Of a stretch of 64,000 nt of DNA, positions 1 to 64,000 are shown in pieces (the first letter of the stretch is position 1; every line of letters begins with the position of its first letter). Source of the stretch: Leucoraja ocellata (taxonomy: Eukaryota); contig JAWMAR010000197.1 in NCBI GenBank assembly GCA_036785375.1, positions 1,240,001 to 1,304,000 of the forward strand, in the 5' to 3' direction. The position numbers and the translations under genes were made by a program. Under the pieces are notes generated by a model. That model did no database searches. It saw only the letters and a program-made list of their open reading frames with translations, and had not been told where the DNA came from.

Positions 1-300
1 AGAGGGAGAGCAAGGGTTACTTGAAGTTAGAGATGTCAATGTTCATACAGCTGGGGTGTAAGCTGCCCAAGCAAAATATTCCTCCAATTTGCGCTGGACC
101 TCACTCTGGCAATGGAGGAGATGCAGGATGGAAAGGTCAGTGTGGGAATGGGAGGATGATTTAAAGTGTTCAGCAATCTGGAGATTAGGTAGGTTTAGGA
201 TGATTGAACGGGAGCATTCAGCGAAACAATCGCCAAGCCTGCGCTTGGTCCAGCACTCTCTGGAGTAATTATATAGGAGTCCACACTTGGAACAGCACAA
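1..300 (-). mobile_element. Penelope-like element fragment, GIY-YIG endonuclease C-terminal region (degenerate)
   Basis: ORF 43..300 reads CSKCGLLY...TKRRLGDCFAE...IAEHF..SHS...QRKLEE, the pattern of the Penelope GIY-YIG domain; homologous to 31145-31400. Confidence 0.8.
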
Positions 301-629
301 ACAGGATTGTTTTCCTTCAGCCGTGCAAGATTAAAGCCTTGAATCTTTGGTGTGCTTTTAAAAACATTTCTTAACCAATACTAAACCTGGTGCACAAGTT
401 GCCAGCAAGTGTAGTTTAAGCCCAATTTGTAGGTCCAGTCTGAAGATGTGGTGATCTGATCATTATTGGAATTCCAGAAAATATGGAAACCTTCCGACAA
501 TTGAACGAAGATTGACAGGGGGACACAAGTTGCTTCTAGTATTTGGAAAGATTCACCCAAGATATGATATAAATATGTGCTGATCTTTATAGACCACAGT
601 TATTCGGTGCAAACAAACTTTGGGTATCA

Positions 630-1030
630 CAGTGCTGCTGCCTCATACTGTAGCTCCAATGCCTTGAACTCAATCTTGACTTATGTTACTGTATTTGTGC
701 GGTTTACGCATTCTCCCTGTGACTGTGTGAGTTTCCTCCAGAGGTCCTGGTTCGTTCCCACATTCCAAAGATGTTCCAGTTGGCAAGTTAATTGACCATT
801 GTAAATTACCCTGAATTTATAGATGGGAATCTAGGGGGAGTTGATGAGAATCTACTGTAGGATGAATTAAATAGGATTAGTGTAAATGGGTACACAGGAG
901 ACATGAGAAAATGCACAGGGAATGAACTGACCTGCTGAGTTCCTTCTTGTTTAATGTAACAAGTGTTTGAAGATGAGAATTGACATGGTAGGTCAAAGGG
1001 CTGTTTCCATGCTGTATCTTTCATTGACTA
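630..1030 (+). mobile_element. Degenerate tRNA-derived V-SINE (HE1-like)
   Basis: V-domain-like core (ttctccctgtgactgtgtgagtttcctcc...cccacattccaaag) and CR1-type tail gggctgtttccatgctgtatct. Confidence 0.6.
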
Positions 1031-1303
1031 GAATCCCTAGTTTCTCCTCCTACCCTTTATTCAGCAATTAATTGTGATTTAAATGATTATATAATTGTTT
1101 CCTCCCATTACCAGTAACTCATTCCATTTATTATTTTCTCTCTTGAAGAATTTCCTGACATTAGAATGGAACATGGCTTGCCTGGTTTGGACCTCTGATG
1201 CATTGTTTCATGCTCAGAGCACTGTTCCTTAATTTTCCTTTAAGGCTCAAATCCTACATTGTTTATTTTCAGACTTCAGGCCAAGTGCTATCGAGATCCG
1301 AAA

Positions 1304-1358
1304 CACTTCATCACTTACTAATGCATCAAAATATGATCCATTAGTAAGTGATGAAGTG
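1304..1358. repeat. Near-perfect 55-nt inverted repeat (hairpin)
   Basis: cacttcatcacttactaatg (1304-1323) is the exact reverse complement of 1339-1358, followed inward by one mismatch, 4 bp and a 5-nt loop. Confidence 0.9.
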
Positions 1359-1519
1359 CAAACACAAATAAATAGCATATGTGCCTGGAACTATACAGAT
1401 CTCCATTCAATCTCAAAATAACATGACATACCTATAGTTCTAAAACATTATTTCCCGTCAGTTTTCTCGAAACCTTTACCTTGGATGATATTTTCTAAAA
1501 CTCAACATACTCCATTATA

Positions 1520-1728
1520 ACAAGGAAATGCAAATGTTGATATACACCAAAGATAGACACAAAATGCTGGAGTAACTCAACGGGTCAGGCAGCATCTTTG
1601 GAGAAAATGGATAGATGATGTTTGGGGTCGGGTCGGAAGAAAGATTCCGACCTGAAACGTCACCTCTCCATTTTGTCCAGAGAATCTACCTGACCCGTTG
1701 AGTTACTCAAGCATTTTGTGTCAATCTC
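1520..1728. mobile_element. Fold-back Penelope-derived mini-element with degenerate hammerhead core
   Basis: Arms gatagacacaaaatgctggagtaactca... / ...tgagttactcaagcattttgtgtc; centre ggaagaaagattccgacctgaaacgtcacc. Confidence 0.8.
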
Positions 1729-2249
1729 GAATATAACTTATTTTCCTTTCAATTTTCTGCCTGAAACAAGTTTCCCTTTATTGTGCAGATGGCAAAATGG
1801 GGACTCTTCATTTTCTTGGGTTTGGATGGAGCTGCACTGTCATTCTTTCTTTTCAATGTCCTGCAGAATTTATGTGTGATTTATGTATAATATAAGTATG
1901 TCTTTTGTGTTGTTGACTGAGCTTATGTACCCGCGTAATGCTGTTGCATGCAAGATTTTCACCGTACCTGTACTTCACTATATTTGTACATCATACAATA
2001 AGCTCGGCTTGACTTGACTTGACGTGACGTGATGTGACTATTTATTCATTAATAGTCACATCTGCTGTGAAAGTTTCATTTGATGTTGATGCTTCTGCTG
2101 CTGATTCACTGGAAATAATAAAATAGAGAGTAAGACGGAGAAGGATTCTGTTCCATCTCACCTGCTGGTCCAACTCTGTCTCAATAATAAATAACCTTGA
2201 GGTTCAACTAAATCAATACCTTCAGCTGCAAGCCAGGTTTTCATCAGTT

Positions 2250-2345
2250 GATAGACACAAAGTAACTCAGCGAGTCAGACAGCATCTCTAGAGGGAAAGG
2301 ATAGGTGATATTTTGGTTTCGGGTCGGGACCCTTCTTCTGAATCA
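2250..2345 (-). mobile_element. Penelope-derived mini-element, single arm
   Basis: Same family sequence, ending in antisense hammerhead remnant gtttcgggtcgggacccttcttctga. Confidence 0.7.
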
Positions 2346-2512
2346 GGGTTCAGAGGTGGGGGGGAGTGAGGGGTTGTGTACAGGAGAGGGGTCGTAGGGG
2401 TAACGTCGTTTAAAGAGGGAGAAGGCAAGCAGGACCCCATGGCACCATTATTGAGGTTCCTTGGGGGTTTTTTGGGGGGGGGGAGCTGTGGGACCCAGGA
2501 GAGTCAACAGGA

Positions 2513-2690
2513 GGATAGACACAAAATGCTGGAGTAACTCAGCGGGACAGGCAGAATTCCTAAAGAAGGGTCTCGACCCGAAACGTCACCCATTCCTTCT
2601 CTTCAGAGATGCTGCCTGTCCCGCTGAGTTACTCCAGCATTTTGTGTCTATCTTCGGTTTAAACCAGCATCTGCAGTTCTTTCCTACACA
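2513..2690 (+). mobile_element. Penelope-derived mini-element with short inverted 5' arm
   Basis: Core ctaaaga-a-gggtctcgaccc-gaaacgtc at 2560-2587 (G5 mutated); 2514-2554 is the reverse complement of the downstream arm. Confidence 0.8.
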
Positions 2691-3044: not shown

Positions 3045-3178
3045 TGTGTAGGAAGAAACTGCACATGCTGGTTTAAACTGAAGATGGACACAAAATGCTA
3101 GTGTAACACAATGGGACAGTCAGCATCTCTGGAGAGAAGGAATGGGTGAAGCTTCGGGTCAAGACCCTTCTTGAGACT
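3045..3178 (-). mobile_element. Penelope-derived mini-element, single arm
   Basis: Family consensus in reverse orientation ending cgggtcaagacccttcttgagact. Confidence 0.75.
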
Positions 3179-3995
3179 TGGCTTCAGGCTTGGATTTACA
3201 TGTGTCTCTGCATTTGATAATGGTCCTCTCGATTGTTTTGCTCTGTCTCTATGAAACTCTGCCCCCCTGCATCAATGTAGGAAAAGGGTTTCACTTTGCA
3301 ATTTCTCTTCTGATGAATTGGGAACTATTGTCATGCAGCTGTTTCTCAGAAATCACTTCTTCTGCAGACAGGATGCAGACTGCAGTGGTAATTGTTGTGG
3401 TTCTCAGGCCTTTACTACTCTAATGAAGGAAATCATTTTCTTGGTAGTTTTATAAACAAACAGCTCTGATGATTTTGCATGGGTTGGTGATATCTCAGCT
3501 GTCATCTGTTTTTATTGTCTATTTCTTTACTGGAAAACAAAATAATAAATATCTTTGTGCATTATCCTTTATTCTGTATTGCATCTCTCCAAAATTCCTA
3601 CCAAAATGCATCATCTCAGAATACTACACATTAAACTTCATCTGCCACAAATCTACCCATTCCATCTCCCGGTTTATTGCCACTTGCATTTTATCGCTGT
3701 CCTCTTGTCAGATGCAACCTTTCTCGTCTTTATCTTCCTGCACCTATTCATTATCCAGGGATTTTTTTGCCGTTCAAGTCTAAACTGCATGTGAACCATC
3801 TTATCATTAGAGGTAACTTCACTATTATAATTTAGCCTAACTCTGCATTGCACTTGGAGACACACTGGAATGTATCAGGCCCAACAGTTTTTGGCAACTT
3901 CAGTGAGCAAGTGTCACAAATTTTACATTGCTTTATATATTTCAATGCCAACTTTCCTGGTGAGGTGCAAACATTCCAAAAGTTGTGGTGGAGGT

Positions 3996-5175
3996 AGTTT
4001 AGTTTAGTTTAGTTTAGTTTAGAACTAGACTAAGTGGGACCCTTTGGGTCCCATGTTCACACTGGAGGGCTGGTCCCCCAACGCAATATTCCACCTCTCC
4101 ACCAATTCCATGATTGCTGGCCAGTGTGGTGGGGGGGGGGGGGGGGGGCTTTCTGGAGCATGGGTGTTGTGGGCCAAAGGGACTGGTTTCCAGAGGGATA
4201 GTATGGTCGTTGTGGGCTGAATGGATTCTTGAGCTGGCAGCTCAGTCACTCAGGCCTGGCAGCTCAGTAACCCAAGCCAGGCAGGCTAGCTCAGAAACTG
4301 CCAGAAATTCTGCCGAAAACAGGTGAGAGACTGAGAGAGAGAAAGGGGAGAGGGTGGACAATCAATTTTAGACATTTTCATCTTGTTTTACAATTGCAAA
4401 AGGCACACAGTTGCAAAAGGCACACAATTGCAAAAGGCACGGTTGAAAAAGTCACACATTTCAATAGCCACACAGTTGCAAAAGGCACAGTTTAAAAACA
4501 CATAATGGGCACTCACAGGTCAGTATTCTCAGTGTTTTGTAGATTTCCAGCTCAGACTGAGAGTTGTGACCCTCTCCCTCCCCCATCTTGCAGAGACTGA
4601 GCCACGCCAACACTTCCGGGTGTTATAGTCCCTCCCCCTTCCACCGGAAGAGGCGTGGACTTCATGGCGTGATTGACAGGAGAGAGAATCTCAACATTTT
4701 TTAAACATTATTATGTCTTTTATTTTTCATCGATGGGAAAAATCCTCTGGGCCTGACTGCTGGAGGGGGACTCTGAGTAAGATGGCCAAAAATCACAGCC
4801 GTAAGTGGTAGTGTTTTTGTAAAATTAATATGCAGTGCAAACAGGAAGTGGTCAAGTTTAGACTTTTAATTATATAGATTACTGCATGAAAACAGGTACC
4901 TCTGCCCACCGAGACCACGCCTACCATCAATCGCCTGTTCATATTATGCTATCCCAATCTCTCATCCACTCCCTACATATTGGGGGCGACTTACGGAGGC
5001 TAATTAACCTACAAACCCGCACGTACTTAGCATGTGGGACGAAACCGTAGCACTGAGGAAATTCACAGGGAGAATGTGCAGACTCCACACAGACAGCACC
5101 CCAGGTCAGGACTAAACCCAGATCTCTGGCACTGTGAGGCAGCAGCGTAACCAGCTTTACCACTGTGCCGCCTGC
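3996..5175 (-). mobile_element. V-SINE (HE1-like) interrupted by a Helitron
   Basis: (gttta)n tail at 3996-4023, body resumes at 4879-5175 with V-domain and tRNA-like head. Confidence 0.8.
4025..4878 (-). mobile_element. Non-autonomous Helitron
   Basis: On the minus strand: 5' TC, 3' CTAG preceded by hairpin tgggaccc-aaa-gggtccca, inserted between A and T with no TSD; internal acaattgcaaaaggcac-like repeats at 4390-4500. Confidence 0.8.
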
Positions 5176-5812: not shown

Positions 5813-6023
5813 AGAAACAAGGAACTGCAGATGCTGGCTAATACACAAAAGGGCACAATGTGTTGGAGTAATTCAGCATGTCAGGCAGCATCTCTGGAGA
5901 ACATGGATAGATGATGTTTCGAGTCGAGTCTGAAGGGGGTCTCAACCTGAAACATCACCTATCCATGTTCTCCAGAGATGCTGCCCGACCTGCTGAATTA
6001 ATCCAGCACTTTGTGTCCTTTTA
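5813..6023. mobile_element. Fold-back Penelope-derived mini-element with 13-bp TSD
   Basis: aatcataaattgg at 5800-5812 and 6024-6036; long inverted arms; centre gtctgaagggggtctcaacctgaaacatc. Confidence 0.85.
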
Positions 6024-6314: not shown

Positions 6315-6600
6315 AGTTTAGTTAGGTTTAGAGATACAGCGTGCAACAGACCATTGAGCCCTTCGATCCCTGTATACTAGTTCTATCCTACACACTAGGG
6401 ACAAGTTACAGAACAAATTAACCTACAAACCTGCACACGTTTGGAATGTGGGAGGAAACTGGAGCACTCAGCGAAAACCCATGCGGTCACAGGGAGAACG
6501 TACAAAGTCCGTACAGACAGCACCCGTAGTCAGAGGTCGAACAAACCCAGGTCTCTGGGGCTGCAAGGCAGCAACATAACTGCTGCTCCATTGTGCCATC
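6315..6600 (-). mobile_element. V-SINE (HE1-like)
   Basis: Reverse complement of tRNA-like head, V-domain and (taaac)n tail. Confidence 0.85.
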
Positions 6601-17924: not shown

Positions 17925-18052
17925 GTGTAAGAAGGAACTGGAGATGCAGGTTTACACTGAAGATAGACACAAAATGTTGGAGTAACTCAGCGGGTCAGGC
18001 AGCATCTTTGGAGAAAAGGAATAAGTGACATTTTGTGACAAGACCCTTCATT
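17925..18052 (-). mobile_element. Penelope-derived mini-element, single arm
   Basis: Family consensus in reverse orientation. Confidence 0.7.
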
Positions 18053-18309
18053 AGAACCTTTCACAGTAATGTGATCACAAGGATCACACTAATTATTTGC
18101 TTGCATTTACACACTGTAGCATCCACTAGAGTCCTTCACGCACCAGACCTAACATTTTAGTAGAACAGGGTGGTTGGTGGCCAATGGTGGCCAGGCCTTG
18201 GGCCTAAAAACCTGAGTCCCCATCCCAAAGATAGTCCTGTTGGCCTTTGATTGCTGTTGTCAAGGGCATTTAAGCTATTTTTAAATTAAGAGTTTTGTAA
18301 AAGTAGTTT

Positions 18310-18662: not shown

Positions 18663-18790
18663 GTGTAGGAAGGAACTACAGATGCTGGTTTAAACCAAAG
18701 ATAGACACAAAAAGCTGGACAGGCAGCATCTCTGGGGAGAAGTAATGGGTGACGTTTCGGGCTGTGATCCTTCTTCAGACTGGTTAGGGA
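18663..18790 (-). mobile_element. Penelope-derived mini-element, single arm
   Basis: Family consensus; aataatag present on both sides. Confidence 0.8.
18747..18781 (-). ncRNA. Putative minimal hammerhead ribozyme motif (core nucleotides intact)
   Basis: Minus strand gt-CTGAAGA-a-ggatcacagccc-GAAA-cg-TC-ac; stem II has one mismatch; activity untested. Confidence 0.6.
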
Positions 18791-19675: not shown

Positions 19676-20728
19676 CATTTATCAAAACGTAATCTGACAC
19701 TTCATGTTTCTGCAGACCCGGCCCGATGATATCAGCGAGAAGCGGGCTTGACCAGGATAGTGGGCCCTTTAAATTGCTCCCTTAAAAATAATATTTCATA
19801 TTTTTTGCATATCTTTCATGCGAAGAAAATTTATACAGGGTATTTGAGCACTGGCAACTCAATAAATAATGAGTACTGGCCAATGCTTACACATTCATCT
19901 TAACACATTTCAAAGACCCAGAATGGTTTACAACCATCATCTGAAGGCCAGGAAGAGATTGTGATCGTGAATTAATTCCTTGGTTTATCCATTATTTATT
20001 TCAATGACATACAGATCAGTTTTGGCGGTTGTTTTATTGAGCTTTTTTTTTAGTCCTTGTCCTAATCCCAAGATGTCATAGAAATATTGAGAGCACATTG
20101 TTTCATGTAATGCGAATAGAAATGTCCATTGTCTTGCAAAGTCCTGTGCAGTTTACCAGCAGAGTGATAGAACATGAAAGGGGAGATTGTTTTTGAAAAC
20201 CAGTGCAAGACTGAGACTGAATGAGGTTAATGTAGTCTGAAGTCTGAATCATGAGATGTGTCATTCCAAATGCATTATAGATTTATTTTATAGTAGATTC
20301 ATGGTAAAGAAGGTCAAATTGAGAATTTTCTAATTGCCAAGTCTAGCAGATTTTTAAAATTGCTACTACATAACGAAAGCTCTATTTTAAAGTAGATCAA
20401 AAAAGTCATCTGAAAATTGCAGCCATTATGGAGCGTGGTTTTAATGTAACAATAAAGGGATAGTCAGAAATCCTCACGTATTTTTATTATTCAAACTGCA
20501 TTCCCATCTGAAAATTATTAGTACCTTGCTGAATTAGTGCGAGGTTAAACTCCTGATATGAATACATATAAAGTAGAATAATAACTGTTTCATGTAGCTT
20601 CATCCAAATTAATATTGTTTTGGTTTGCTTATAACAAGATAAATCCACTTATGAAATGTTTGCTAATTAGTTTATGGACTATGTTATAGTGCAAAGCCTG
20701 CAAAGTATTAAAAACAGATGACCAACAA

Positions 20729-20875
20729 GATAGACACAAAGCGCTGGAGTAGTATAGCGGGTCAGGCTGCATCTCTGGGGAAATCCAGAGATGCTGCCCG
20801 ACCTGTTGAGTTACTCAAGTACTTTGTGTCTATCTTTGGTATAAACCAGCATCTGCAGTTTTTTTTCCCTACATT
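20729..20875. mobile_element. Fold-back Penelope-derived mini-element, centre deleted
   Basis: Inverted arms meet at gcatctctggggaaatccagagatgc; no hammerhead core left. Confidence 0.8.
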
Positions 20876-21531: not shown

Positions 21532-22659
21532 CAGTGTTGCGGTGCTATTTTTTTAGGTGCCGGAGCTGTCAAACAGGGGCATCATTTCAGGTTTTGCTTG
21601 GGAGGGGCGGGCAAGCTAGTCTCCCAAGAGGGTCAAACAAGATTATAGCCCATAATTACATCCCAGTGTATAACTAGTACAATAAAACAGATAATACTTA
21701 ATTTAATAATATGACAAAATATTGCACGGTTGCACTCACTAATTATCATGAAATATAATTATCAAGTAAAGAAAAAGACAGTAATCGTGTATTTTTACAG
21801 AGGTGCCGGCCCGGCACCAACTCGCCCTGACTCTTCCGCAGTTCCCACACACTCACACACATGCTCACACTCACACTCACACACACTCACTCACTCATCC
21901 ACTCACCCACTCACTCACCCACTGCAATGGACCACAACTCTCCTTCATTCGACGCCAGATCCACACCCTCAACAAACGCTTCTTCGCCTATCTGGACTCT
22001 ACCAAGGATCATAAGCTTGCCCTCCTCCAGATCGGTCCCTCCACCGATACTCCTCGACTCGACCGCCCGCCCGCAGGCCAGGAGCTCCTCCGCTGGACCG
22101 CGGCGCTGCTTGCCCGACCACCACGAGGCCGAGATGGGCAACACGAGGAGCAGCAACAACATCTGCTGCCTCTGCGACCCTCACTGCCTTCCCGGCCAAA
22201 CCCAGGCCTGGACCACCAAAACTGCCGCGGCTGCCGACTCTCACCGCCTCCCCAGGGCCGCCACCGCTGTCGCCAACCTTCACTGCCTCACCGGGGCCAC
22301 CGATGCTGCTGCCGCTGACCCATATCTCTACTCCAGCCCCCCACGGGCCTCCACCAGTGACTCCGCCGACCCTCGCTTTTCCACCGTCCACCAGCGGGCC
22401 AGAGCCGTCACCTCACAGGAATTCCAGGCTCAGCACCAGGCCCACAGCCTCCACGATGCAGACAGCATGTGGTCTGACTCTGCTGGGTCCTATTGCACCT
22501 TCCCCTTCCTACAGGGAACCTCAGTAGTGATGGATCTTCCTCTTCTCACTTTTTCAACCAGATTACCCCAACCACACACTCCCACTGATTTTTTGGCTTT
22601 TTTTTTTACAGAGGTGCCGGAGCGGTGCTCCAGTGAGCTCCGGCAGCATTGCACCTCTG
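21532..22659. mobile_element. Non-autonomous hAT-type DNA transposon (1128 bp) with 8-bp TSD
   Basis: attaacac at 21524-21531 and 22660-22667; CAG...CTG ends with 11/15 TIR match; aggtgccgg repeated at about 21555, 21800 and 22612. Confidence 0.85.
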
Positions 22660-29300: not shown

Positions 29301-29448
29301 CATCAGTCATAGATCAGTCTGAAGAAGGGTTTCGGCCCGAAACGCTGCCTATTTCCTTCACTCCATAGATGCTGCTGCACCCGCTGAGTTTCTCCAGCAT
29401 TTTTGTGTACCTTCGATTTTCTATCATCTGCAGTTCCTTCTTAAACAA
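29301..29448 (+). mobile_element. Penelope-derived mini-element (148 bp) with 13-bp TSD
   Basis: ttatttgctataa at 29288-29300 and 29449-29461; core CTGAAGA-a-gggt-ttcg-gccc-GAAA-cgct at 29319-29346. Confidence 0.9.
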
Positions 29449-30413: not shown

Positions 30414-30964
30414 TTGTGAATTGGCAATGTGTTTGTGAGTCCTAATTAGGGTTGGAAGAATTCACAAGGATCCGGGTGTGGATAGATAGCAATGTTTGCC
30501 AGGAGAAACAATGAGAACCAGCAGGATGTTGTGAGAACTCTGTCTAGGAGTGATGGGAGCTGTGGTGAGGTGGGGACAGAAATGCACACATATGAGCAGT
30601 TGAGATCAGAATGAGCAAGCACTATTGTAGAGATTTTTAGCAAGAAATCAGATAATGTTTTCTTTCACGTGTAAAATTCCGGTGGGTTGAATTGACATTT
30701 CAAAGGTTAGGGTTAAAAAATTGGAAAACTATGGATTTACTGGGGATAGTCAGTATTGCTTTGTGTAGGGGAAGTTCTGTCTCATACATTTGTTTGAGCA
30801 TTGTGAGAAAGTGATGAGGATGCTTGATAATGGGAAGGCAGTTTATATTGTCTACATGGAGTTAGGTACCAACATGGAAACAAGCTGGAGAATCTGCATC
30901 ATTTGCTTCTGTTGTTATGCCTTCACCAATGAGAAAGACACAAATGACAGTGAGATAAGGGGCA

Positions 30965-31485
30965 ATGTTTAAGAAAGAACTGCAGATGCTGGCAAAATCA
31001 AAGGTAGACAAAAATGCTGGAGAAACTCAGTGGGTGAGGCAGCATCTATGGAGAGAAGGAATAGGCAACGTTTCGGGTCGAGACACTTCTTCAGACAGAT
31101 GTCGGGGGGCGGGAAAAAGAAAGGAAGAGGCGGAGACATCTTCGATGTAACTTCTCCACATCGGCGAAACCAAGCGTAGGCTTGGCAATCGCTTCGCCCA
31201 ACACCTCCGCTCTGTTTGCACTAACCAACCAACCAGTGGCTCAGCACTTCAACTCCCCCTCCCATTCCGAATGATCTTTCTGTCCTGGGCCTCCTCCATG
31301 GCCAAAGTGAGGCCCAGCGCAAATTGGAGGAACAGCACCTCATATTTCGTTTGAATAGTTTACACCCCAGCGGTATGAACATTGACTTCTCCAATTTTAG
31401 ATAGACCTTGCTTTCTCCCTCCTTCTCCTCCCCCGTCCCAGCTCTCCCACAAACCAATTGTCTCCGCATCTTCCTTTCTTTTTCG
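30965..31485 (+). mobile_element. Penelope-like element fragment: inverted pseudo-LTR joined to GIY-YIG endonuclease coding region
   Basis: From about 31154 the sequence encodes LHIGETKRRLGNRFAQHLRSV...HFNS...QRKLEEQHLIFRL; 30965-31139 is the inverted terminal repeat, its end complementary to 31460-31483. Confidence 0.85.
31065..31096 (-). ncRNA. Putative minimal hammerhead ribozyme motif in a Penelope pseudo-LTR
   Basis: Minus strand gt-CTGAAGA-a-gtgtctcgaccc-GAAA-cg-TT-gc. Confidence 0.6.
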
Positions 31486-34379: not shown

Positions 34380-34502
34380 ATGGGTGACATTTCGGGTCAA
34401 GACCTTCTTCAGATGGGTCTTGCAGCGTCTGATCAAAGTAGTCCATATTGTCCATGTAGACAATATAAAGTGCCTTCCCCTTGTCAGTCTGTTCAGACAG
34501 AC

Positions 34503-34537
34503 GGGTCTGAAGAAGGTCTCAACCCGAAACGTCACCC
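34503..34537 (+). ncRNA. Putative minimal hammerhead ribozyme motif
   Basis: gggt-CTGAAGA-aggtctcaaccc-GAAA-cg-TC-accc: 4-bp stem I (gggt/accc), intact core, GUC cleavage triplet. Confidence 0.65.
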
Positions 34538-35506
34538 ATTCCTTCTCTCCGAGATGCTGCCTGTCCCGCTGAGTTACTCCAGCATTTTGTATCTATCTTC
34601 AGTTTAAACAAGCATCTGCAGTTCCTTCCTACAAAGAAAGATGTGATAGCATATAGACAAAATTGACATTGTGACTAGGTCATGTTTTAGTACATTGTCT
34701 GGGCATGCTGCCAATTTGCTGTCTCATTGGTCTTTCAGTCCACTTGCAAACACAATGTCAGTAAAAGCTTTTTGCTGTGAATTGACTGCATGCAGATTTA
34801 CTCTGAACTGTGACAGTAAATGCCTTGTTAAAAATTAGTGAGCTTTCTATATTTGTATTTTATCATGATTTGCCTCGACTTCCAAGAAGATTTTTTTTAG
34901 TTTTGTCAAGAATGTTAAAAGGCAGCAGTTTCTGAAAAATTTTGAGTGGTTCCTAAATTTTGTGAAATATTAAATCTTTGTTTGCAAGTTTATTTCAGGA
35001 ATATTCTTCAATTTCAGAATAACCCTGCTGCAAAGAATTCATGTGACAAAGAATTGAACTGGTTTCCTTAAGCCTAGTCTTTTGCTTACTGTTACAGTTT
35101 TTTTTTACATTTCATTTTGAGTGAAGTGGATTTAAAATGCAGTGCAGGAGTCGGTGTGTCTCTAAAGATGAATAATGAAACATTAGGCAAGGCTTTGCTG
35201 ATGCAGTTTTCTTGTGCTGTGCTAAAAGCATCTGTCATTTGAGCTGTTAGAATATAAGAACAGTTCCAACAAGAGCACTAGAACAGTCATCACTAGGGCA
35301 AATAAAAGCATTTCTATTGAAAACTGCTCCTTGCAATGATGTTTGATCTTTTCAGCAGTTATTTTCGAGTTAAAATTAATTAGCCCGTCAAAAAACACCA
35401 ACACATTTTAACAATGCCTATTGCAGACTTTAGGATTTTAATTTATTTATATTTGATGCATTTGTTTGTTTTTTCCGAAATGGCTAAAGCTCAGATTTAT
35501 AACAAA

Positions 35507-36811: not shown

Positions 36812-37000
36812 GTGTTGGAAGGAACTGCAGACGCTGGTTTACACTGGAGATAGACACAAAATTCTGAAGTAACTCACCAGGTCAGGCAGCATCGCTGGAG
36901 AAAAGGAATAGGTGATTCCTTTCAGACCCGAAACGTTACCTATGCCTTTTCTCCAGACACACCGCCTGACCCGCTGAGTTACTCCAGCATTTTGTGTCTA
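36812..37000. mobile_element. Fold-back Penelope-derived mini-element
   Basis: Inverted arms; centre retains only gacccgaaacgttacc. Confidence 0.8.
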
Positions 37001-37574
37001 CCCAATATTGGTTTCTAAAACCAGAAGTAAGTTTACATCAACCAAACAAGTAGCATGAAATTAATATTTTATCGTAAAAGATGCAACTATATCATAATTT
37101 GCAGTAAGTATTGAATGAAGACGTGTTCAAATCTGGTACTTGTTAAACTACATCACTTATATTTGTAGAGTGGCTTCTTTTCATATTCTGCTGATGTCAT
37201 TTCCATTGTCGTTTAAATATGCCTTCATTCATTTTTCAAGAACAACGCTTCAAGCATAATCTTACAGTGGTTAACTATCTTCTGAAACATTTTAGCACGA
37301 TAGTACAAACACAATAACTCATTAAAACAGAGAGATTACAATTCAAGATGTGACCCAGACTGCAGAAATATTGTGTACAGATTACAGCCACTTCCTGTGC
37401 AATTCTGGGTATATGGTATGAGCTTGACATCTTGTGCCCAAGCACAATGGATATTGAGGTTTGGGTCTCACTTCCACAGAGATGGGTGGGATGTGCAGAT
37501 GTGTCAACATTCTCACTAAAGTTCGACCATGTGTAAAAAAACGCTTCATGACAGCACCAGGAACGATACTGTTG

Positions 37575-43345: not shown

Positions 43346-43367
43346 CCTATGATGTTTCTTCAAACAC

Positions 43368-43625
43368 AAAACATCACCTTTCCATGTTCTCCAGCCTGAT
43401 CCACTATGTTACTCCAGCACTTTGTGTCTTTTTCTGTAAACAAGCATCTGCAGTTCCTCGTAGAAACAAAGAACTGCAGATGTTGGTTTATATCAAAGAT
43501 AGACACAAAGTGAAGAAGGGTCTGAAGGGTCTGATGAAGGGTCCTGACCCGAAAATATACCAATCCTTTTTGTTCCAGAGATACTGCATGACCTGCTTAG
43601 TTACTCCAGCACTTTGTGTCTATCT
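43368..43625. mobile_element. Two adjacent Penelope-derived mini-elements
   Basis: Core CTGATGA-a-gggtcctgaccc-GAAA at 43531-43554 preceded by tgaagggtc stutters. Confidence 0.75.
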
Positions 43626-44139
43626 ACAGTCCCTTGATTCTGTGCCCAAGAACTGGGATATCTGTTGATTTTAATGGCTGCATGAGACTGAGATAAGTAG
43701 CGGTTAAATGAGAAATTTTAATTGTTTCATTATATGTATATATCGTGTTTTGCATTTATTATTTTTTAGAAGCAATAATTTGAATAGCTTTCAATTACAT
43801 TTATCTTTGATGATTTTGATGATCCAAAAGATTGAATGTTTTGAAGGTTTATGCTAAACCAGGAAGAGCTGTCTAGCTAGAACAATCAAAGGCTTTCTTG
43901 ACATTTTGTGAGCAAGGCTGGTTCTGTTCTGGACTGATGGAGCTAAGTTGTGCAAGGCCCCCAACACATGCAGGGAGCCAGCATGATAATTGGAGTTGAA
44001 TCTAGACCGCACGTTCAGGTTCAGGTTAAAGAACAGAAAGTGTTGTAAATAGACATCAGTTCGAGAACATCTGTGGAGAGAGAAATAGAGTCAACGTTCA
44101 GCTTTCGTCAGAACTGTGTATGTGTAAAGGAGGTAAGGA

Positions 44140-45072: not shown

Positions 45073-45215
45073 TGGAGAAACTCAGCGAGTGAGGCAGCAT
45101 ATAAGACCCGAAACGTCACCTATTCCTTCGCTCCATAGATGCTGCCTCACCTGCTGAGTTTCTCCAGCATTTTTGTCTACCTTCGATTTTTCAAGCACCT
45201 GCAGTTCTTTCTTAA
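45073..45215 (+). mobile_element. Penelope-derived mini-element with short inverted arm
   Basis: ggagaaactcagcgagtgaggcagcat / gacccgaaacgtcacc...atgctgcctcacctgctgagtttctcc. Confidence 0.8.
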
Positions 45216-45911
45216 ATTTTTTATTTGTTTGCATGCTTTTTCATTTCATGATGTTTAGAATAAAACTGTAATCTCAATATTACTGGCACCTATTTTTACA
45301 CAGGAGTAAATATAGGACCTCTGCCCATTTGAAGATAAACACAGAAGTTGTGAAATTACTGAGGAAGCTGGAATACTGCACATAGCAAATAGTTCTGAAA
45401 ATAGCAAATATTCAATTTATCAGGTTTCAGCTCTTGTTAGATAGTTCCTGGATTTCTGGGGCTGAAGAAGGGTTTCGACTCCTATTCCTTTTCTCCAAAG
45501 ATGCTTCCTGACCCACTGAGTTACTCCAGCTCTGTTTTATGGGAACATGTTTGGGCTGTAGATTGTGCTGTACTGAATAGACAGTCTGGGCAATTTTCAA
45601 TTTCATTTGCGAGCTGGGCTGGCGAGAGAAATATTGTGCCGTGGTCATTTCTTAATTTCTACAAGCTGGAAGGTCCACCTAGTTCCCAGGGGTCAAAGCT
45701 GCAAACGTTTGTGCTTCCTCCAGAGGATTAATTCCTAGCAAGATTTGATATAGACTCCAGAACCATCTTTAAGGCTCCATTCTTAGACAACCACCATGCA
45801 GCTACAGGCCAGAAAAGACTGCTATTGTATTTTGGTTCCCAGCACTGTGTAAAGTGGCCAGATCATGAAAAGCTAGCACCTCTGTATCAGAACTTTGGAC
45901 AAGATTCAAAT

Positions 45912-47005: not shown

Positions 47006-47009
47006 TCGT

Positions 47010-47930
47010 AACTTTGGTGGCAAAAACAGGAAAGTAGACTATTATCTGAATGGTGGCCGATTAGGAAAAGGGGAGATGCAACGAGACCTGGGTGTCATGG
47101 TACACCAGTCATTGAAAGTAGGCAAAGTGTTCAGTCTGAAGAAGGGTTTCGGCCCGAAACATCACCCATTTCCTTCGCTCCATAGATGCTGCTGCACCCG
47201 CTGAGTTTCTCCAGCATTTTTGTGTACCATTGAAAGTAGGCATGCAGGTGCAGCAGGCAGTGAAGAAAGCAAATGGTATGTTAGCATTCATAGCAAAAGG
47301 ATTTGAGTATAAGAGCAGGGAGGTTCTACTGCAGTTGTCCAGGGTCTTGGTGAGACCACACCTGGAGTATTGCGTACAGTTTTGGTCTCCTAATCTGAGG
47401 AAAGACATTCTTGCCATAGAGGGAGTACAGAGAAGGTTCACCAGACTGATTCCTGGGATGGCAGGACTTTCATATGAAGAAAGACTGGATAAACTCAGCT
47501 TGTACACGCTAGAATTTAGAAGATTGAGGGGGGATCTGATAGAAACTTACAAAATTCTTAAGGGGTTGGACAGGCTAGATGCAGGAAGATTATTCCCGAT
47601 GTTGGGGAAGCCCAGAACTAGGGGTCACAGTTTAAGGATAAGAGGGAAGTCTTTTAGGACCGAGATGAGAAAATCATTGTTTACACAGAGTGATGAATCT
47701 GTGGAATTCTCTGCCACAGAAGGTAATTGAGGCCAGTTCATTGGCTATATTTAAGAGGGAGTTAGATGTGGCTCTTGTGGCTAAAGGGATCAGGGGATAT
47801 GGAGAGAAAGCAGGTACGGTAGGTATACTGAGTTGGATGATCAGCCATGATCATATTGAATGGCGGTGCAGGCTCGAAGGGCCGAATGGCCTACTCCTGC
47901 ACCTATTTTCTAAGTTTCTATGTTTCTATG
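47010..47930 (+). mobile_element. CR1 LINE 3' fragment
   Basis: ORF 47230..47730 VKKANGMLAFI...LVRPHLEYCVQFWSP...RRLRGDLIE; ttctatgt tail. Confidence 0.95.
47125..47227 (+). mobile_element. 103-bp hammerhead-bearing Penelope-derived insertion with 15-bp TSD inside CR1
   Basis: cattgaaagtaggca at 47110-47124 and 47228-47242; core CTGAAGA-a-gggt-ttcg-gccc-GAAA-ca-TC. Confidence 0.92.
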
Positions 47931-53430: not shown

Positions 53431-54699
53431 ATCCTTTTCCCTCTATTTGTGTTTTTAAGTTGCTATCTTATAACAAATGCCTCACACGTTCAAGTACAGC
53501 ACCAAATATTGGAGTATTTAACAATGTATACATCTTAACATTTCTTGCACCTTGGCCCAATTTGTTATATTATTCTGAAGAAGGGTCTCAACTCAAAATG
53601 TCACCTCTTCCTTTTCTCCAGAGATGCTGCCTGACCCGTTGAGTTACTGCAGCATTTTGTGTCTTATCATCTTTTCTTATCTGGACACTATTTGTAAGTG
53701 CGCTCGCTTGACTATATGCTCTGTACTTTCCCTCCTTAATTATTCCCCTGTACCTTCCTGGTATTTTTTTCTGTTTTATTGGAGATTCCTCTCCATCAGG
53801 AGTGACCACCCCTGCCCCTCTCAGCCACTTAACATAGAAACATAGAAACTAGGTGCAGGAGTAGGCCATCCGAATTCAATATGATCATGGCTGATCATCC
53901 AACTAACATCTTATGTAGTTTGGGGAAACATCAGCCTTGTCATGCAACTATCACAATCTATGGAATTCACATTCAGAAATGTATTAAGTGAAATAAATAA
54001 CAATTCAGAGCAAGTTTGAACTTGCATTTTTGAACCTGTTTCATCAACGTAAAGCATATTTCCACACTAGGCATAGTTAGTGAGGGATTATATGTCAATA
54101 GCACTGACAATGCACTTTTACTGTTCACATGCCAAAAACAGACTGCAAAATGATGTGCAGTCCCAATCTTCCAACCTACCTCATTGCAGACTTGATATTT
54201 TTTACCTGCACTCTCTTTGAAACTAGAACGTAATATTGATGAATATTCAGCATTCCTGTTGCACTTGTATGCATTGGTTGTTCTCATGTGTAGTATGATT
54301 TGACTGGTTAGCACACATGCAGAGATTTTCACTGTATTTTGGCACACGTAACAATAATAAACCAAAAGGATGATTTTAGGAAGAAATTAGCCAATTCTGC
54401 ATTCTTCTTGCGTGAACAAGAAATTTTATTTTTAATTTGAATATAGGTGAAATAGAGGAAAGACAGTGGCTTGTCAGCATGTGACAAGATAAAAGGTGGA
54501 AAGAACTTGTAAAGTAACATTCTCTGGATCCTTGTGTTATCCGGAACAGTTTCGCTTAGTTTAGCTTAGAGATACAGATACAGCACGGAAACATGCCTTT
54601 CAGCCCACCGAGTGCGATTCCCGCACGTGAGCACTATCCTACACATGCTATAATTTACAATTTACCAAGCCAATCAGCCTACAAATCTGTACGTCTTTG

Positions 54700-55225
54700 G
54701 AGTGACGTCTGGACTGACATCTTCAACCTGTCACTTGCCCAAGCAGTTTTCCCACGTGCCTTAAAACCACTTCCATCGTGCCGGTGCCAAAACACTCCAC
54801 TGCGGCAAGCCTCAACGACTTCCACCCAGTTGCACTTACCCCCATCATCACCAAGTGCTTCGAGAGAATGGTCCTGGCACACCTCAAAGGCTGCCTACCC
54901 CCCACATTGGATCCCTATCAGTTTGCCTACTGCAAGAATAGTACGGAGATTGCCATCTCAACGGCACTTCACTCCGCCCTCTCCCACCTCGACAACAAAG
55001 ACACTTACGTAAGAATGCTGTTCATCGATGACAGCTCAGCATTCAACACCATTATACCCTCAAAACTGATCAACAAACTCGGTAACCTGGGCATCGACCC
55101 CTCCCTCTGCAACTGGATACTGGACTTTCTAACCAACAGACCCCAGTCTGTTAGGTTAGACAAGCACACCTCTTCAACCCTCACCTTGAACACCGGCGTT
55201 CCACAGGGCTGTGTGCTGAGCCACC
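54700..55225 (+). mobile_element. Rex1/Babar RT fragment
   Basis: ORF 54778..55266 PVPK...[36 protein letters not shown]. Confidence 0.92.
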
Positions 55226-57268: not shown

Positions 57269-57965
57269 CAACATCCGATCCTGTGGATAGGGTGAACTGT
57301 TTTAAATATCTGGGAGTCCACATCTCTGAGGATATGACATGGGCATCACACGCCTCAGCACTCGTGAGTAAGGCAAGGCAGCGCCTTTACCACCTCAGGC
57401 AATTGAGGAAATTCAGAGTGTCTCCAAGGATCCTCCAGTGCTTCTACGCAGCGGCGGTGGAAAGCATCTTGTCCGGGGACATTACCATCTGGTTTGGGAA
57501 TTGCTCTGCCAAGGACAAGAAGGCTCTGCAGAGAGTAGTGCGTTCGGCTGAACGCACTATGGGAACTTCACTCACCCGCCTGCAGGAACTATACAACAGG
57601 AGGTGCAACTCCAGAGCAAACAAAATCATGGGAGACCCCTTCCATCCCTGCAACGGACTGTTCCAGCTGCTACGGTCAGGCAAACGCCTCCGTTGCCATG
57701 CGGTGAGAACGGAGAGGTTGAGAAGGAGTTTCTTCCCAGAGGCAATTCGGACTGTAAATGCCTATCTCACCAGGGACTAACTCTACAGAACGTTTTTCCT
57801 TCCATTATTTACTATGTAAAAGAATATGTGTGTTATGATTGTGTTTATAATTTGTTTGGTTGTTTGTTGTTTGTCTTTTGCACAAAATTGCCACTTTCAT
57901 TTCACTGCACATCTCGTATGTGTATGTGACAAATAAACTTGACTTGACTTGACTTGACTTGACTT
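57269..57965 (+). mobile_element. Rex1/Babar 3' end inserted into Gypsy gag
   Basis: ORF 57217..57780 FKYLGVHI...KARQRLYHLR...VESILS...SFFPEAIR; gtgacaaataaa(cttga)n tail. Confidence 0.95.
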
Positions 57966-58734: not shown

Positions 58735-58972
58735 TGCTCTGGCCTTTGTCCAAGAATCTGTCTATCAAATAACCCCCCTCACCAGTGTTCATCTATTACT
58801 TGCCATGCTCTCTCCCAACATTCTTTCCCACCTCACTACAATCAATCTGAAGAAGAGTTCTGACCCGAAAAGTCCCCTATCCATGTTCTCCAGGGATAGT
58901 GCCTGACTCATCGAGTTACTCTAGCATTTTGTGTCTATCTTTGGAATAAACCAGAATCTGCAGTTCCTTGTT
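58735..58972 (+). mobile_element. Longer Penelope-derived fragment including sequence upstream of the hammerhead
   Basis: Pyrimidine-rich leader, then ctgaagaagagttctgacccgaaaagtc and the family arm. Confidence 0.75.
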
Positions 58973-59244
58973 ATTTCATTGTGAAATAAAATTGATGGCT
59001 TCACTATTAATGTTTTACCTGGAGGAAATTGCAGTTCATTCGATGCTAAGTATTAGACAATCATTTTGACAACACACATATAGTGAAGCTAATTTAAAAA
59101 TAGTTGATCTTTCGTCACCTCCGTCCTACGCAATAAGTATTCATTGAACTCTACTATTCCTTATTGTCATCCTGCATATTACAAAGGATAGAATCCAATC
59201 AAGTCAACCACATTGCTGTGTGTCTAGAGTCACATATAGGTCAG

Positions 59245-59550
59245 ATTTAGTTTAGTTTACAGATACAGCATGGAAACAGGCCCTTTGGCCCATCCAACCA
59301 TCACCCATTCACACCAGTTCTATGTTATCCCACTTTCCCTACACATTAGTGGCCATTTACAGCGGCCAATTAACCTACAGGACCCCTCTTCTGTGGGATG
59401 TGAGTGGAAACCAGAGCACCCGCAGGAAACCCACGCAGTCAAAGGGAGAACGTGCAAACTCCACACGGACAATACCCTAGGTCAGGATTGAACCCGGATC
59501 CCTGGCACAGTGAGGCAGCAGCTCTACCAGCTGTACCACTGTTCCGCCCT
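59245..59550 (-). mobile_element. V-SINE
   Basis: Full reverse copy. Confidence 0.85.
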
Positions 59551-60353: not shown

Positions 60354-60354
60354 A

Positions 60355-60735: not shown

Positions 60736-61339
60736 TTGAAAATAGAGACAAAGTGCTGGAATAACTCATCAGGTCAGGCAGCATTTCTGGAGAACATTGA
60801 AAAGTGACGGTTCGGGCCGAGATCCTTCTTTAGTCTGAAGAAGGGCCCATTTTGTTTGTGAATTTCTTCAGCACTTTTGTCCTTTAAATCATATTTTTTT
60901 CACATTTTATTTTGTCACAACATAGAATGAGTCCATGCAGCCCTTTGAGTCTATGCCATCTCTTGGGACAAATCCATTCTATCACTTATTTACTCCCCAT
61001 AACTCAATCTCTTTCACATTCTATTTTTTATCATCTTGATTCTCCCACCAAAAATCCGCATTAGGGTTAATTTGCAGTGACTAATTAACCTGATGCAGGA
61101 GGGGAAAAAAAGCACCCAGGGAAAACCAATGTTGTCACAGGATAACATGCGAACTCCACACTGACAGTGCCTGAGGGGACTGATGACAAATCATTGGAGC
61201 TTAGAGAGAGCTTTGCCTCCTGCTGAACCACTGTTTTACCTGCACCTTTTTCACCTTCAACTGATTTGGTGTAAAATCTAATCCTGATAAACACATGACT
61301 TTCTAATTTATTTTGTGTATCCAACATTTTTTAGAGACA

Positions 61340-61553
61340 ACGGAACAGTGGATGCTGGTTTACACTGAAGATAGACAATGGACCATTGTGGGCACTTCAG
61401 CTATCGGTGCCAGTTCTGATTTGTTCCTTACCTTTTCATCCCTCCCCCCTGACACTCAGGTCAAAGGGTCTCGACCTGAAACGTCACCTATTCCTTTTCT
61501 CCAGAGATGCTGCCTGACCTGCTGAGTTACTCCAGCATTTTGTGTCTATTTCC
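61340..61553 (+). mobile_element. Penelope-derived element with inverted 5' piece and 10-bp TSD
   Basis: tttagagaca at 61330-61339 and 61554-61563; agggtctcgacctgaaacgtcacc remnant. Confidence 0.8.
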
Positions 61554-61574
61554 TTTAGAGACAGCTCAGCAACC

Positions 61575-62200
61575 CAAGTTCAAGTTCAAGTGAGTTTATT
61601 CTCATGTGTCCCTGTATAGGACAATGAAATTCTTGCTTTGCTTAAGCACACAGAAAAGAGTAGGCATTTACTACAAAACAGATAAATGTGTCCATATACC
61701 ATGATATAAATATATACACACATGAATAAATAAACTGGTAAAGTGCAAATAACAGAATAATCAGAGTTTTGTCCGAGTCAGGTTTAATAGCCTGATGGCT
61801 GTTCCTGAACCTGGTTGTTGCAGTCTTCAGGCTCCTGTACCTTCTATCTGAAGGTAGCAGGGAGATGAGTGTGTGGCCAGGATGGTGTGGGTCTTTGATG
61901 ATACTGCCAACCTTTTTGAGGCAGCGACTGTGATAAATCCCCTCGATGGAAGGAAGGTCAGAGCTGATGATGTACTTGGCAGTGTTTACTACTTTTTGTA
62001 GTCTTTTCCTCTCCAGGGCGCTCAAATTGCCGAACCAAGCCACGATGCAACCGGTCAGTATGCTCTCGACTGTGCACCTGTAGAAGTTAGAGAGAGTCTT
62101 CCTTGACAATCCGACTCTCCGTAATCTTCTCAGGAAGTAGAGGCGGTGACGAGCTTTTTTGATAATTGCGTTAGTGTTCTCGGACCAGGAAAGATCTTCA
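61575..62200 (-). mobile_element. Rex1/Babar 3' end
   Basis: ORF 61642..62109 FYRCTVESILTGCI.AWFGN...LLPSDRRYRS; (cttgaa)n tail. Confidence 0.93.
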
Positions 62201-62854
62201 TTAAGTAAACGAAAGATGTATTGAGCAGCCAGGTGAGATTAGAGCATCAAACCTTAGTTTTAATATTAAAAGAGTGACAACAAGCAAAAGAGCATTATCT
62301 GCCCCATTACCCCTGCCGCATACACTCTGCCTTCCTCAATTATCTACTGATGACTAGTCTGTTGCCGACTTCCATCATTCTCTGGTTTAGTTTCAGTTTC
62401 CACGCATCTCTGGTCTTTTAGTTTTTGCATCACTTGGCTTCTAATTAACACTCTCTTGACTAGTGGATTTAAGCCATAGTACCATGAAAGATTATCGATC
62501 ATTGGTGTCCAGGATATAGTGCTGCAGTCCGCAAGAACACATTTGTATCTCATCACAGGGGTCGACATGCCTACAGTACTATCCTCGGGCATCAGTTCTC
62601 TTTAAGTACCTTCAGGCCCTGACAGGAGTCAGGATCTCTCGTCATAATGGATGTTAATTAGGTGAATTCCCTCACTTTTTCTAATTTGCAGGTAAATTAA
62701 GACAACATATATTGTTCTCCAATCAAGACATTTCTTGCAGCTTGAGAAATATGTTTTCCCTTGTAATTGTTGCTGCAGTCAATAAGTAAAATGTTATTAT
62801 TTTATTGTGGGGCTCACTTCCAGAAATTTATGAACACACACTTGAAGTAATCTT

Positions 62855-63116
62855 GGGGCAGCACAGTGGTGCAGTGGTAGAGTTGCTGCCTTACAGTGCC
62901 AGAGACCTGGGTTTGATCCTGACTACAGGTGCTGTATGTACGGGCGTGTGTACATCACCCTGTGACCGCTTGGGTTTCCTACGGGTGCTCCGGTTTCCTC
63001 CCACATTGTAAAGACGTGCAGGTTTGTAGATTAATTGGCTGTAAAATTGTCCCTCGTGTGTAGGATAGAATTTGTGTCCTGGTTCCATGCTTTATCTTTA
63101 AATTAAACTAAACTAA
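62855..63116 (+). mobile_element. V-SINE
   Basis: gggcagcacagtggtgcagtggtagag head, V-domain, taaactaaacta tail. Confidence 0.88.
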
Positions 63117-63564
63117 TCCGTCCCACCAAAGTGGGCCAAGAAATTTGCAGTTGCACCTGAAGCCTATGGTATTTGTGCTGCTGAATCGTTCTCTCACAAA
63201 GGTAGAGTCATTCCTTTTGGCATGATGTCAATGCAGAGCATGTGAAGGTCAATCATCAAATGGAGAGCAATTTCTGTGTCAGAATGGTTTGCAATTGAAA
63301 GAGGACATGGATTAGGGAGAACCATGAACCAGAGGAGAGGAGATTGACATAAGATTCAATACCCAGTGGGCCTGTAGTTGGGGACTTGCAATTGATGTTC
63401 AGTATAAAATGAACTCTCGCGGGGGGTGGAGGGAAAGGGGAGCGGGGGGGTGGGGGGGGAGAGAGGACCGCAAGCAGTGTCAATGGCCTGTGAAGTGTGA
63501 TGTGGATGGGGTAGTTGGTGAATTTAAATCCTGCAATTGACGAGTTCAGGACCTGTGATTGTCA

Positions 63565-63768
63565 AAAACAAAGAACTACAGATGCTGGTTTACAAAAATG
63601 GACACAAAGTGCTGGAGTAACTCAACAGATCAAGCAGCATCACTGGAGAAAATGAATAGATGATGTTTTGGGTTAGGACCCTGACGAAGGTTCCTGACTC
63701 AAAACGTTACCTATCTATGCTCTCCAGAAATGCTGCCTGACCCCCAGAGTTACTCTAGCACTTTGTGT
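63565..63768. mobile_element. Fold-back Penelope-derived mini-element with imperfect 13-bp TSD
   Basis: cctgtgattgtca / cctgtgatcggca flanks; core CTGACGA-a-ggttcctgactc-aaaa-cgtt. Confidence 0.8.
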
Positions 63769-64000
63769 CCTGTGATCGGCAGTCAGGCAGATGAGCTGAT
63801 GAGCAAGTTTGCAGATGGGTAGTTGGTTTGGAGGGATTTGTTTGGGTGATTTGGCCCTGGGAATCAGAATATCAATGGTCGGGAAGATCAAGTGAGCGTG
63901 AATTAGGTTGGATGAGGGGAAGGAGGTCAAAGCAGAGCAAATACATAAATAAAGGGCTCAGCTCCAATAGAATGGAGTTCCTATTGTCAAGTGGAGATGC

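Follow-up and report, generated by a model that had tools for sequence, protein, structure and literature searches.

We analysed a 64,000-nucleotide stretch of the Leucoraja ocellata genome (GenBank assembly GCA_036785375.1, contig JAWMAR010000197.1, positions 1,240,001 to 1,304,000 of the forward strand), hereafter the window, which is densely populated by a short repeat carrying a hammerhead ribozyme motif (Table 1). Judged from its sequence, the repeat represents ~130 nt at the end of the pseudo-long terminal repeat (pLTR) of an autonomous Penelope-like element (PLE), which encodes a reverse transcriptase (RT) and a GIY-YIG endonuclease (EN) and is present at full length in the genome. A search profile built on nine window copies found 47 repeat segments when E≤0.1 was allowed; the reversed window gave none. 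At E≤0.01, 45 segments make up 35 insertions, or one per 1.8 kb: 26 single copies (~100 or 135 nt), eight head-to-head pairs (inverted pairs measure ~140–220 nt) and one mixed case. These figures bear out an earlier, sequence-only reading of the window, which had put the family at about 30 copies of 100–250 bp and roughly one copy per 2 kb; the seven cores it had named all bear the motif, with hammerhead position C3 at 18778(−), 29319, 31094(−), 34507, 43531, 47136 and 63681.

Sixty 10-kb stretches drawn at random from large contigs held 299 segments in 235 insertions, that is, one per 2.6 kb and 4.7% of the bases, with none in the reversed controls. If extrapolated to the assembly (3.44 Gb), this amounts to ~1.3 million loci genome-wide, although the haploid number may be lower because the assembly appears to hold duplicated haplotypes. 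Many loci occur twice with near-identical flanks (L001/L002, L004/L005, L007/L008, L020/L021 and others), suggesting retained haplotypes or segmental duplicates; for the window region at 34500, a twin lies on the same contig at a distance of ~351 kb. Counting exact matches over the whole genome, a 38-nt subfamily-A pattern occurs 22,899 times and a 26-nt B-type core whose −9 base is not T occurs 19,905 times; reversed, neither pattern matches.

The full-length layout of the parent element is seen at locus L062: a truncated upstream copy, a hammerhead unit, the open reading frame (ORF), the endonuclease, a pyrimidine-rich untranslated region (UTR) and a hammerhead unit with a tail. It is a partial tandem forming pLTRs, with a unit of 4,011 nt, and its two repeats differ at 3 of the 398 nt compared. 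A GIY-YIG remnant also lies upstream of the genomic copy L027; a protein search with this remnant gave 66,023 first-look candidates, of which 150 were scored and 15 of the longer ones retrieved. Among the frames of 753–844 amino acids (aa), two of three match Pfam RVT_1 at or above the cutoff. The GIY-YIG match is weak (E 0.003–0.007, below the cutoff), and YCVRC...YIGET is readable in the element's translation. Joining the frames of L062 and L064 gives a predicted ORF of ~1,200 aa with a proline-rich N-terminal half; the first ATG of the long frame lies at +164 from hammerhead C3. Between RT and GIY-YIG, L061–L063 have a C-x4-C-x2-C linker, an instance of the CX2-5CxxC motif common to Neptune and Nematis (PMC8557442). 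The element likely belongs to the Neptune clade, a label given by the RT/linker/GIY-YIG layout, with no clade-labelled reference among the 120 listed homologues. Its nearest named protein relatives in that list are from sharks and rays (65–73% identity).

Three observations together identify the repeat as the pLTR end of this element. First, window copies match the pLTR of L062, at 93.5% identity over 139 nt for the copy at 29311..29446 and at 93% for that at 47130..47228, which sits inside a CR1-like fragment. Second, the copy with C3 at 31094 is joined to an endonuclease fragment (31154..31425) that shares 71–84% aa identity with residues 669–752 of the L062 RT-EN. Third, EN-linked copies occur in each of the five sequence classes. 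UTR-bearing copies amount to 86 of 258, an upper bound since the library included other repeats; a rougher lower figure is 31 of 175. The sequence-only reading had taken the family for a short interspersed element (SINE)-like, non-autonomous Penelope derivative. This view is not supported, given the identification of the unit as the end of an autonomous element's pLTR, the EN linkage in all five classes and the reach of 45 of 90 young copies into the UTR or ORF.

The hammerhead motif

In all five classes, the majority state comprises a CUGANGA/GAAA/UH core, an extra base before stem II, the pair G10.1-C11.1 and a palindromic ACGU. Stem I has only 2 bp, G-C and U-A or U.G beside the core, and stem II has 4 bp. 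On these features the motif is the known minimal hammerhead type carried by PLEs, and the Penelope-type assignment made earlier was correct, as was its mention of an ACGT palindrome and of an extra A ahead of stem II. A generic descriptor of minimal hammerheads gave 52 matches in 664 kb, all 52 of them in the repeat family, and none in reversed sequence; the Rfam scan of the window returned no hammerhead family among its 15 matches at E≤5.

Between class majorities, none of the 11 core columns differs, compared with 19 of 65 downstream columns (Fisher p=0.03, inflated and partly circular because some downstream columns served to define the classes). The counts thus go the way expected of a core better conserved than its flanks, at an overstated significance. 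The differences between classes inside the motif are compatible with pairing (C17/U17, A or G at 1.1, U-A/U.G and the loop). As to the proposal that stem II keeps pairing while its loop changes, the stem varies between classes only in U-A versus U.G and in the loop, with no two-sided change among them. Across 208 copies, N7, previously described as the freely varying base, is A in 90%, like the core positions (90–96%); it is G12, lying in a CpG, that is the most variable core base (74%). That N7 is no more variable than the core, and G12 most variable, points to neutral decay after insertion. Together with the core conserved between classes, this pattern makes the motif look constrained in masters and decaying in copies.

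Among the 24 window segments covering the motif, six keep all 11 core bases and H17, three of them ACGU as well (C3 at 18778, 31094 and 34507), and none also has 4/4 stem II pairs; the defects of the four other named cores are given in Table 1. The corresponding numbers in the random sample are 67, 41 and 26 of 169 covering segments. To call the seven cores intact or nearly so was therefore too generous, and the suggestion that a transcript across the window would contain many potential self-cleavage motifs was overstated, the more so with a stem I of only 2 bp.

Folding of monomers and dimers did not favour the active hammerhead, as expected with a 2-bp stem I, and is evidence neither way; the alignment fold favoured an alternative helix over stem II. 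The 130-nt unit gave no stability signal (z-scores −0.8 to +0.6 in five copies), and it contains a conserved 7-bp helix, AGAUGCU/AGCAUCU, without covariation. A sequence search of the PDB returned no matches. Dimer cleavage of minimal hammerheads is summarised in a review (PMC6765202). We predict that the hammerhead is functional only in the master element, likely as a protein-assisted or dimeric ribozyme, with genomic copies decaying; most repeat copies are mutated and likely inert.

A spliced or separate ‘ACGGG’ leader completing stem I was rejected as a subfamily: its 43-nt pattern has only six exact genomic copies, five of them at inverted-arm junctions. Hammerhead-bearing repeats that are older and more distant, with a different stem II and U or C at N7, lie at 16719–16841 (−), 16877–16965 (+) and 44006–44114 (−). 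Possibly these are other Penelope families, useful for covariation.

In a poly(A) library of a related organism, 13,827 of 12.9 million reads (~0.1%) fall on the pLTR region, with a peak on the 130-nt unit, and 95% of these continue into unlike sequence. The raw reads cover the repeat and the ORF on both strands. Of the sequencing runs listed as containing the repeat, none is registered as RNA. Such coverage, with reads running into unlike sequence, fits passive transcription inside host RNAs and is silent on cleavage.

Insertion ends and their interpretation

From the first 100 perfect-core subfamily-A matches listed for one contig (C1), 90 had their junctions read; we refer to these as young copies. 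In 86 of the 90, the 3' end lies at +88–105 or +129–136 from C3, which corresponds to two sites at ~+94 and ~+131 and an optional 37-nt tail. At the 5' side, 45 copies begin no more than 15 nt before the core, whereas the density of longer ends would predict 0.64; in 22 of the 45, the element match before C3 is exactly 2 nt long. The other 45 reach 29 to at least 1,500 nt upstream, into the UTR and ORF, with scattered ends. Divergence is 3.5% for short and 2.7% for long young copies. Target-site duplications of 9–16 bp surround many copies, some abutting the 5' end and some with a short filler. Head-to-head pairs (46, of which 34 were classifiable) combine one tail arm with one inner-end arm in 29 of 34 cases (p=2e-5); singles divide into 73 versus 77 by the same comparison of tail and inner end.

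Could these short copies be products of ordinary random 5' truncation, or solo repeats left by recombination between pLTRs? We consider this very improbable. PLE insertions are typically 5'-truncated (PMC8557442, PMC8969392), rotifer solo pLTRs have been ascribed to recombination or deletion (PMC3846280), and the scattered 5' ends of half the young copies are what truncation would give. Random truncation, however, would hardly place 45 ends within 16 nt, and recombination would leave a variable length of upstream UTR, not inverted pairs of a tail and a no-tail arm within one duplication.

Loci holding the ORF start (30) add information on the longer copies. Nine continue >1.7 kb into the ORF, all nine with upstream UTR and none starting at −2. 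Most of the others jump from a truncated pLTR to +261–292, a range whose lower edge depends on the query; in three cases free of this bias the jump is to +232–250. L223, L266 and L279 begin at the shared 5' boundary and continue into the ORF start, which ties the boundary to ORF-bearing RNA. In L242 (1059–1633), L262–L264, L268 and L284, two to three or more head-to-tail units of ~290–510 nt follow one another, each running from UTR end through hammerhead and tail to ORF start, and each insertion repeats a single junction; they look like newborn retrozyme-type tandems. A propagating internal-deletion master was rejected, as no junction recurred between independent loci among the ~20 seen. At L037 (2203–2500), short repeats of ~66 nt stand head-to-tail; they correspond to a stretch of the unit that lies downstream of its hammerhead core.

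We hold it to be probable, jointly with the identity of the repeat as a pLTR end, that the short copies are run-off complementary DNAs (cDNAs) made by the parent element's protein from its own RNA, and not a separate SINE. The element protein would nick both target strands and prime reverse transcription inside the RNA at ~+94 and ~+131. The template RNA's 5' end would lie 2–3 nt before the core, likely at a transcription start in the initiator-like TCAGT, and synthesis, having covered ~100 or ~135 nt, would run off this end. One cDNA or both would next be attached to the target, which would yield solo or head-to-head copies; in the inverted pairs, both target strands would have been primed, one at each internal site. 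Directly observed are the pLTR identity, the two 3' sites 37 nt apart, the 5' pile-up, the duplications and the pairing of tail and inner-end arms, from which we infer the rest. There is precedent for several steps. In vitro, PAc (Poseidon of Anolis carolinensis), a lizard Penelope, initiates internally at two sites that delimit the tail, with both target strands nicked and extended; its protein needs the ORF start on the template, and its hammerhead cleaves only with the protein (PMC11167929). Penelope of D. virilis has an internal promoter with an initiator and a downstream element (PMC2377424). Since long copies pass the hammerhead without stopping, their templates were likely tandem or circular and lacked that 5' end. 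We predict that solo copies, which lack the ORF-start region required on the template by the anole protein, are dead on arrival.

Having proposed this model, we would note several points that weigh against it. The 5' peak falls on G(−2) instead of A(−3) of the initiator. Evidence for a cap-derived G is weak: the G/T ratio at −2 is 0.85 versus a background of 0.73, and the higher ratio among excess ends at −3 (1.46 versus 0.73) is open to slippage artefacts. The relative's poly(A) reads show neither start nor end peaks on the repeat. Not all of the 90 young copies are independent, since some are paired arms of a single insertion and others are duplicates in the assembly. One subfamily-A variant column is enriched in short copies (15/36 versus 2/38, p=2e-4), which could be explained by a short-only master, and older classes have fewer UTR-bearing copies (8/38 in class C). 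Finally, the presumed need for downstream RNA is borrowed by analogy from a different clade.

One rival keeps the same parent element and attributes the 5' boundary to nuclease trimming up to a folded or protein-bound hammerhead, or to RT fall-off, instead of a transcription start. G(−2) is the outer base of the 2-bp stem I, the 3' sides of the templates appear to end heterogeneously at ~+230 to +290, as if trimmed to a protected core, and the cap signal is, as noted, weak. We regard this rival as rather unlikely, if worth keeping in mind: ends at A(−3) with a G before them show some excess, which speaks against it, and the passage of nine out of nine long copies through the hammerhead argues against simple fall-off.

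The variant enriched among short copies would also suit a self-propagating, non-autonomous SINE-like unit, whose solo copies, equipped with an internal promoter and priming sites, would be transcribed and recopied in trans. A sharp 5' end and two fixed 3' ends do resemble a discrete unit, initiator-like TCAGT and a downstream ACGT stand at its head, and rotifer cis-acting pLTRs can mobilise other sequence (PMC3846280). Nevertheless, short copies have no sequence private to them, each of the five classes has EN-linked members, and short and long young copies are similarly diverged. Moreover, most short copies begin at G(−2) and are thus without the TCA of the putative initiator, and the whole unit aligns to the pLTR, with no tRNA, 7SL or 5S among the 15 Rfam matches in the window. 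Such a unit is, in our judgement, quite improbable.

Splicing deserves a comment, since the upstream UTR of ORF-linked copies is pyrimidine-rich and ends in CTRAY...CAG, and an intron of D. virilis ends at helix I (PMC4209133). The boundary would then be a 3' splice site, and short copies would stem from host transcripts spliced onto a hammerhead exon. We give this little credence. The target-site duplication directly abuts the 5' end, with no captured exon, in L199, L200, L204, L207 and L245, and the joints listed in the relative's RNA reads include no GT-AG joint at the boundary. Separately, a compact splice-acceptor-like array of pyrimidine tract, CTRAY and CAG precedes the hammerhead (e.g., L062:6434–6480), and exonisation in host introns could occur.

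As for RNA cleaved by the hammerhead, genomic 5' ends at the cleavage site gave 598 raw matches versus 377 at one control site; 8/30 and 9/30 of the inspected rows were internal changes, not junctions. At most ~1.7-fold over the control, such ends would make cleaved RNA a minor template at best.

A wider reading, which we offer only tentatively and as a whole, builds on the run-off model: the genome would keep a fossil record of Penelope reverse transcription, made up of about a million intermediates. Solo units would be ‘strong-stop’ run-off cDNAs marking the RNA 5' end at the ribozyme's first base pair, and inverted pairs would record two target strands primed at different internal sites. 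Jumps to +230–290 would create retrozyme-like tandems de novo, and long copies would come from hammerhead-made circles, making the ribozyme a switch between dead-end and productive templates.

The scale of the family (4.7% of sampled bases, tens of thousands of exact intact cores and ~0.1% of the relative's poly(A) reads) makes effects on host transcripts testable. The junctions of young copies provide in-genome support for the two-site internal priming seen in vitro with the lizard Penelope and make the role of the PLE hammerhead in the replication cycle testable, with L062 on hand as a young, nearly intact master. The less familiar features are the 5' pile-up next to the hammerhead and the inverted pairs with a tail on one arm only.

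Features of the window

Table 1. Copies and fragments of the Penelope-like element in the window.
Feature	Position	Strand	Remarks
Penelope endonuclease-domain fragment	2..330	−	runs off left window edge; tblastn E=3e-18
Head-to-head inverted pair, tail arm −, inner-end arm +	1516..1735	.	profile search
Head-to-head inverted pair, inner-end arm −, tail arm +	2511..2689	.	profile search
Solo pLTR end with tail	3046..3181	−	core decayed; profile search and core scoring
Head-to-head inverted pair, tail arm −, inner-end arm +	5816..6020	.	within one 13-bp target-site duplication
Solo pLTR end with tail	17925..18060	−	core decayed; profile search and core scoring
pLTR end with tail	18664..18784	−	C3 at 18778; internal 14-nt deletion; core and ACGU preserved, stem II with one mismatch
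Inverted pair, both arms truncated ahead of hammerhead	20725..20864	.	profile search
Fragment of the element's N-terminal ORF region	21902..22039	+	tblastn E=4e-10, 60% identity
Solo pLTR end with tail, young subfamily A	29311..29446	+	C3 at 29319; U16.1 -> C; 13-bp target-site duplication
pLTR end with tail and ~40 nt of upstream UTR	30963..31135	−	C3 at 31094; core and ACGU preserved, stem II with one mismatch
Inverted GIY-YIG endonuclease C-terminus fragment, same element	31154..31425	+	adjoins the 30963..31135 copy; tblastn E=5e-25
pLTR end with tail	34500..34633	+	C3 at 34507; core and ACGU intact, 1-nt stem II deletion
Inverted pair, tail arm −, inner-end arm +	36813..37014	.	hammerhead truncated; profile search
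pLTR end, inner 3' end	43525..43630	+	C3 at 43531; stem III lost; inverted partial arm 43465–43512
Inverted pair	45073..45216	.	hammerhead truncated; profile search
Solo pLTR end, subfamily A, inner-site end, no tail	47130..47228	+	C3 at 47136; ACGU -> ACAU; 15-bp target-site duplication
Solo pLTR end	53569..53697	+	G12 -> A; profile search and core scoring
Solo pLTR end with tail, older class C	58841..58974	+	profile search and core scoring
Solo pLTR end, inner 3' end	60736..60837	−	core decayed; profile search and core scoring
pLTR end truncated within hammerhead	61464..61552	+	profile search
Head-to-head inverted pair, tail arm −, inner-end arm +	63568..63769	.	C3 at 63681; G12 -> A; degenerate 13-bp duplication around the whole pair

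Other repeats share the window. A second dispersed family (4983–5172, 6397–6533, 10522–10707, 19491–19676, 28996–29194, 43148–43347 and 59349–59548) resembles what we take to be the elasmobranch V-SINE/HE1. RT fragments labelled CR1-like from their translation, a type of long interspersed element (LINE), lie at 32525–34287, 9364–9818, 12500–12959, 47140–47931 and 48992–49478; within them, 9518–9818 and 12507–12807 form a 96% inverted pair. A different LINE-type RT, presumably L2/Rex-like, is represented by fragments at 24789–25934 (−), 54560–55266, 57217–57780 and 61642–62238, and a 368-aa frame at 56137–57243 (−) resembles, by eye, an LTR retrotransposon gag-protease. A palindromic element at 10672–10909, with 97-nt arms 92% complementary and a related copy 40 kb away at 51274–51364, is a possible miniature inverted-repeat transposable element; its weak Rfam match, Dictyoglomi-1, is far below the cutoff.

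Comparison with known systems

No earlier description of the repeat family or of its 5' pile-up was found in the literature, although Repbase, Dfam, subscription papers or the supplements of a 2026 preprint, which surveyed one chondrichthyan genome, may hold one. Inverted arms and a one-sided tail are already known for PLEs (PMC8557442, PMC3846280, PMC8969392), and a Penelope expansion has been reported in whale shark introns.

Minimal hammerheads were described in the pLTRs of metazoan PLEs, mostly as single motifs ascribed to truncated PLEs and also as pairs on opposite strands (Cervera and De la Pena 2014, PMC4209133). The present motif shares with them the type-I core, the unpaired base before stem II, G10.1-C11.1, the palindromic 15.2-16.2 and the absence of loop 3, and the known ones occur in Neptune and Poseidon elements of fish. 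It differs in helix I, which has 2 bp here, as in the D. virilis variant, instead of 4–5 bp; stem II here has 4 bp. It also differs in number, the two exact-match counts given above comparing with ~4,000 in coelacanth and ~9,000 in Xenopus. In the available part of that paper, cartilaginous fish are unmentioned.

Like the EN+ PLEs of the Neptune type (Craig et al. 2021, PMC8557442), the element has an RT followed by a CxxxxCxxC linker and then GIY-YIG, partial tandems, inverted 5'-truncated arms and a 30–40-nt tail at one end. Here, unlike there, the ORF is predicted at ~1,200 aa, and the sharp 5' pile-up at the hammerhead is undescribed in the accessible text of that study. With PAc (Frangieh et al. 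2024, PMC11167929) it shares two internal priming sites delimiting the tail, a hammerhead upstream and extension of both target strands, the last established in vitro for PAc and proposed here from genomic junctions. PAc, however, belongs to another clade, and its ORF starts inside the hammerhead, whereas the first long-frame ATG here lies well downstream.

Retrozymes have been described as PLE derivatives (Cervera and De la Pena 2020, PMC7229834; Li et al. 2026, bioRxiv 10.64898/2026.07.22.740005), and the non-long-terminal-repeat ones resemble the short copies in being short, non-coding, hammerhead-bearing and related to PLE pLTRs. Known retrozymes, however, are head-to-tail tandems, mostly with canonical ribozymes, whereas the window copies are solo or head-to-head, and head-to-tail units in this genome occur only as rare one-off insertions outside the window. 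Taken together, the window samples a very abundant Penelope of Neptune type with a minimal hammerhead, the ribozyme itself being of a kind known since 2014.

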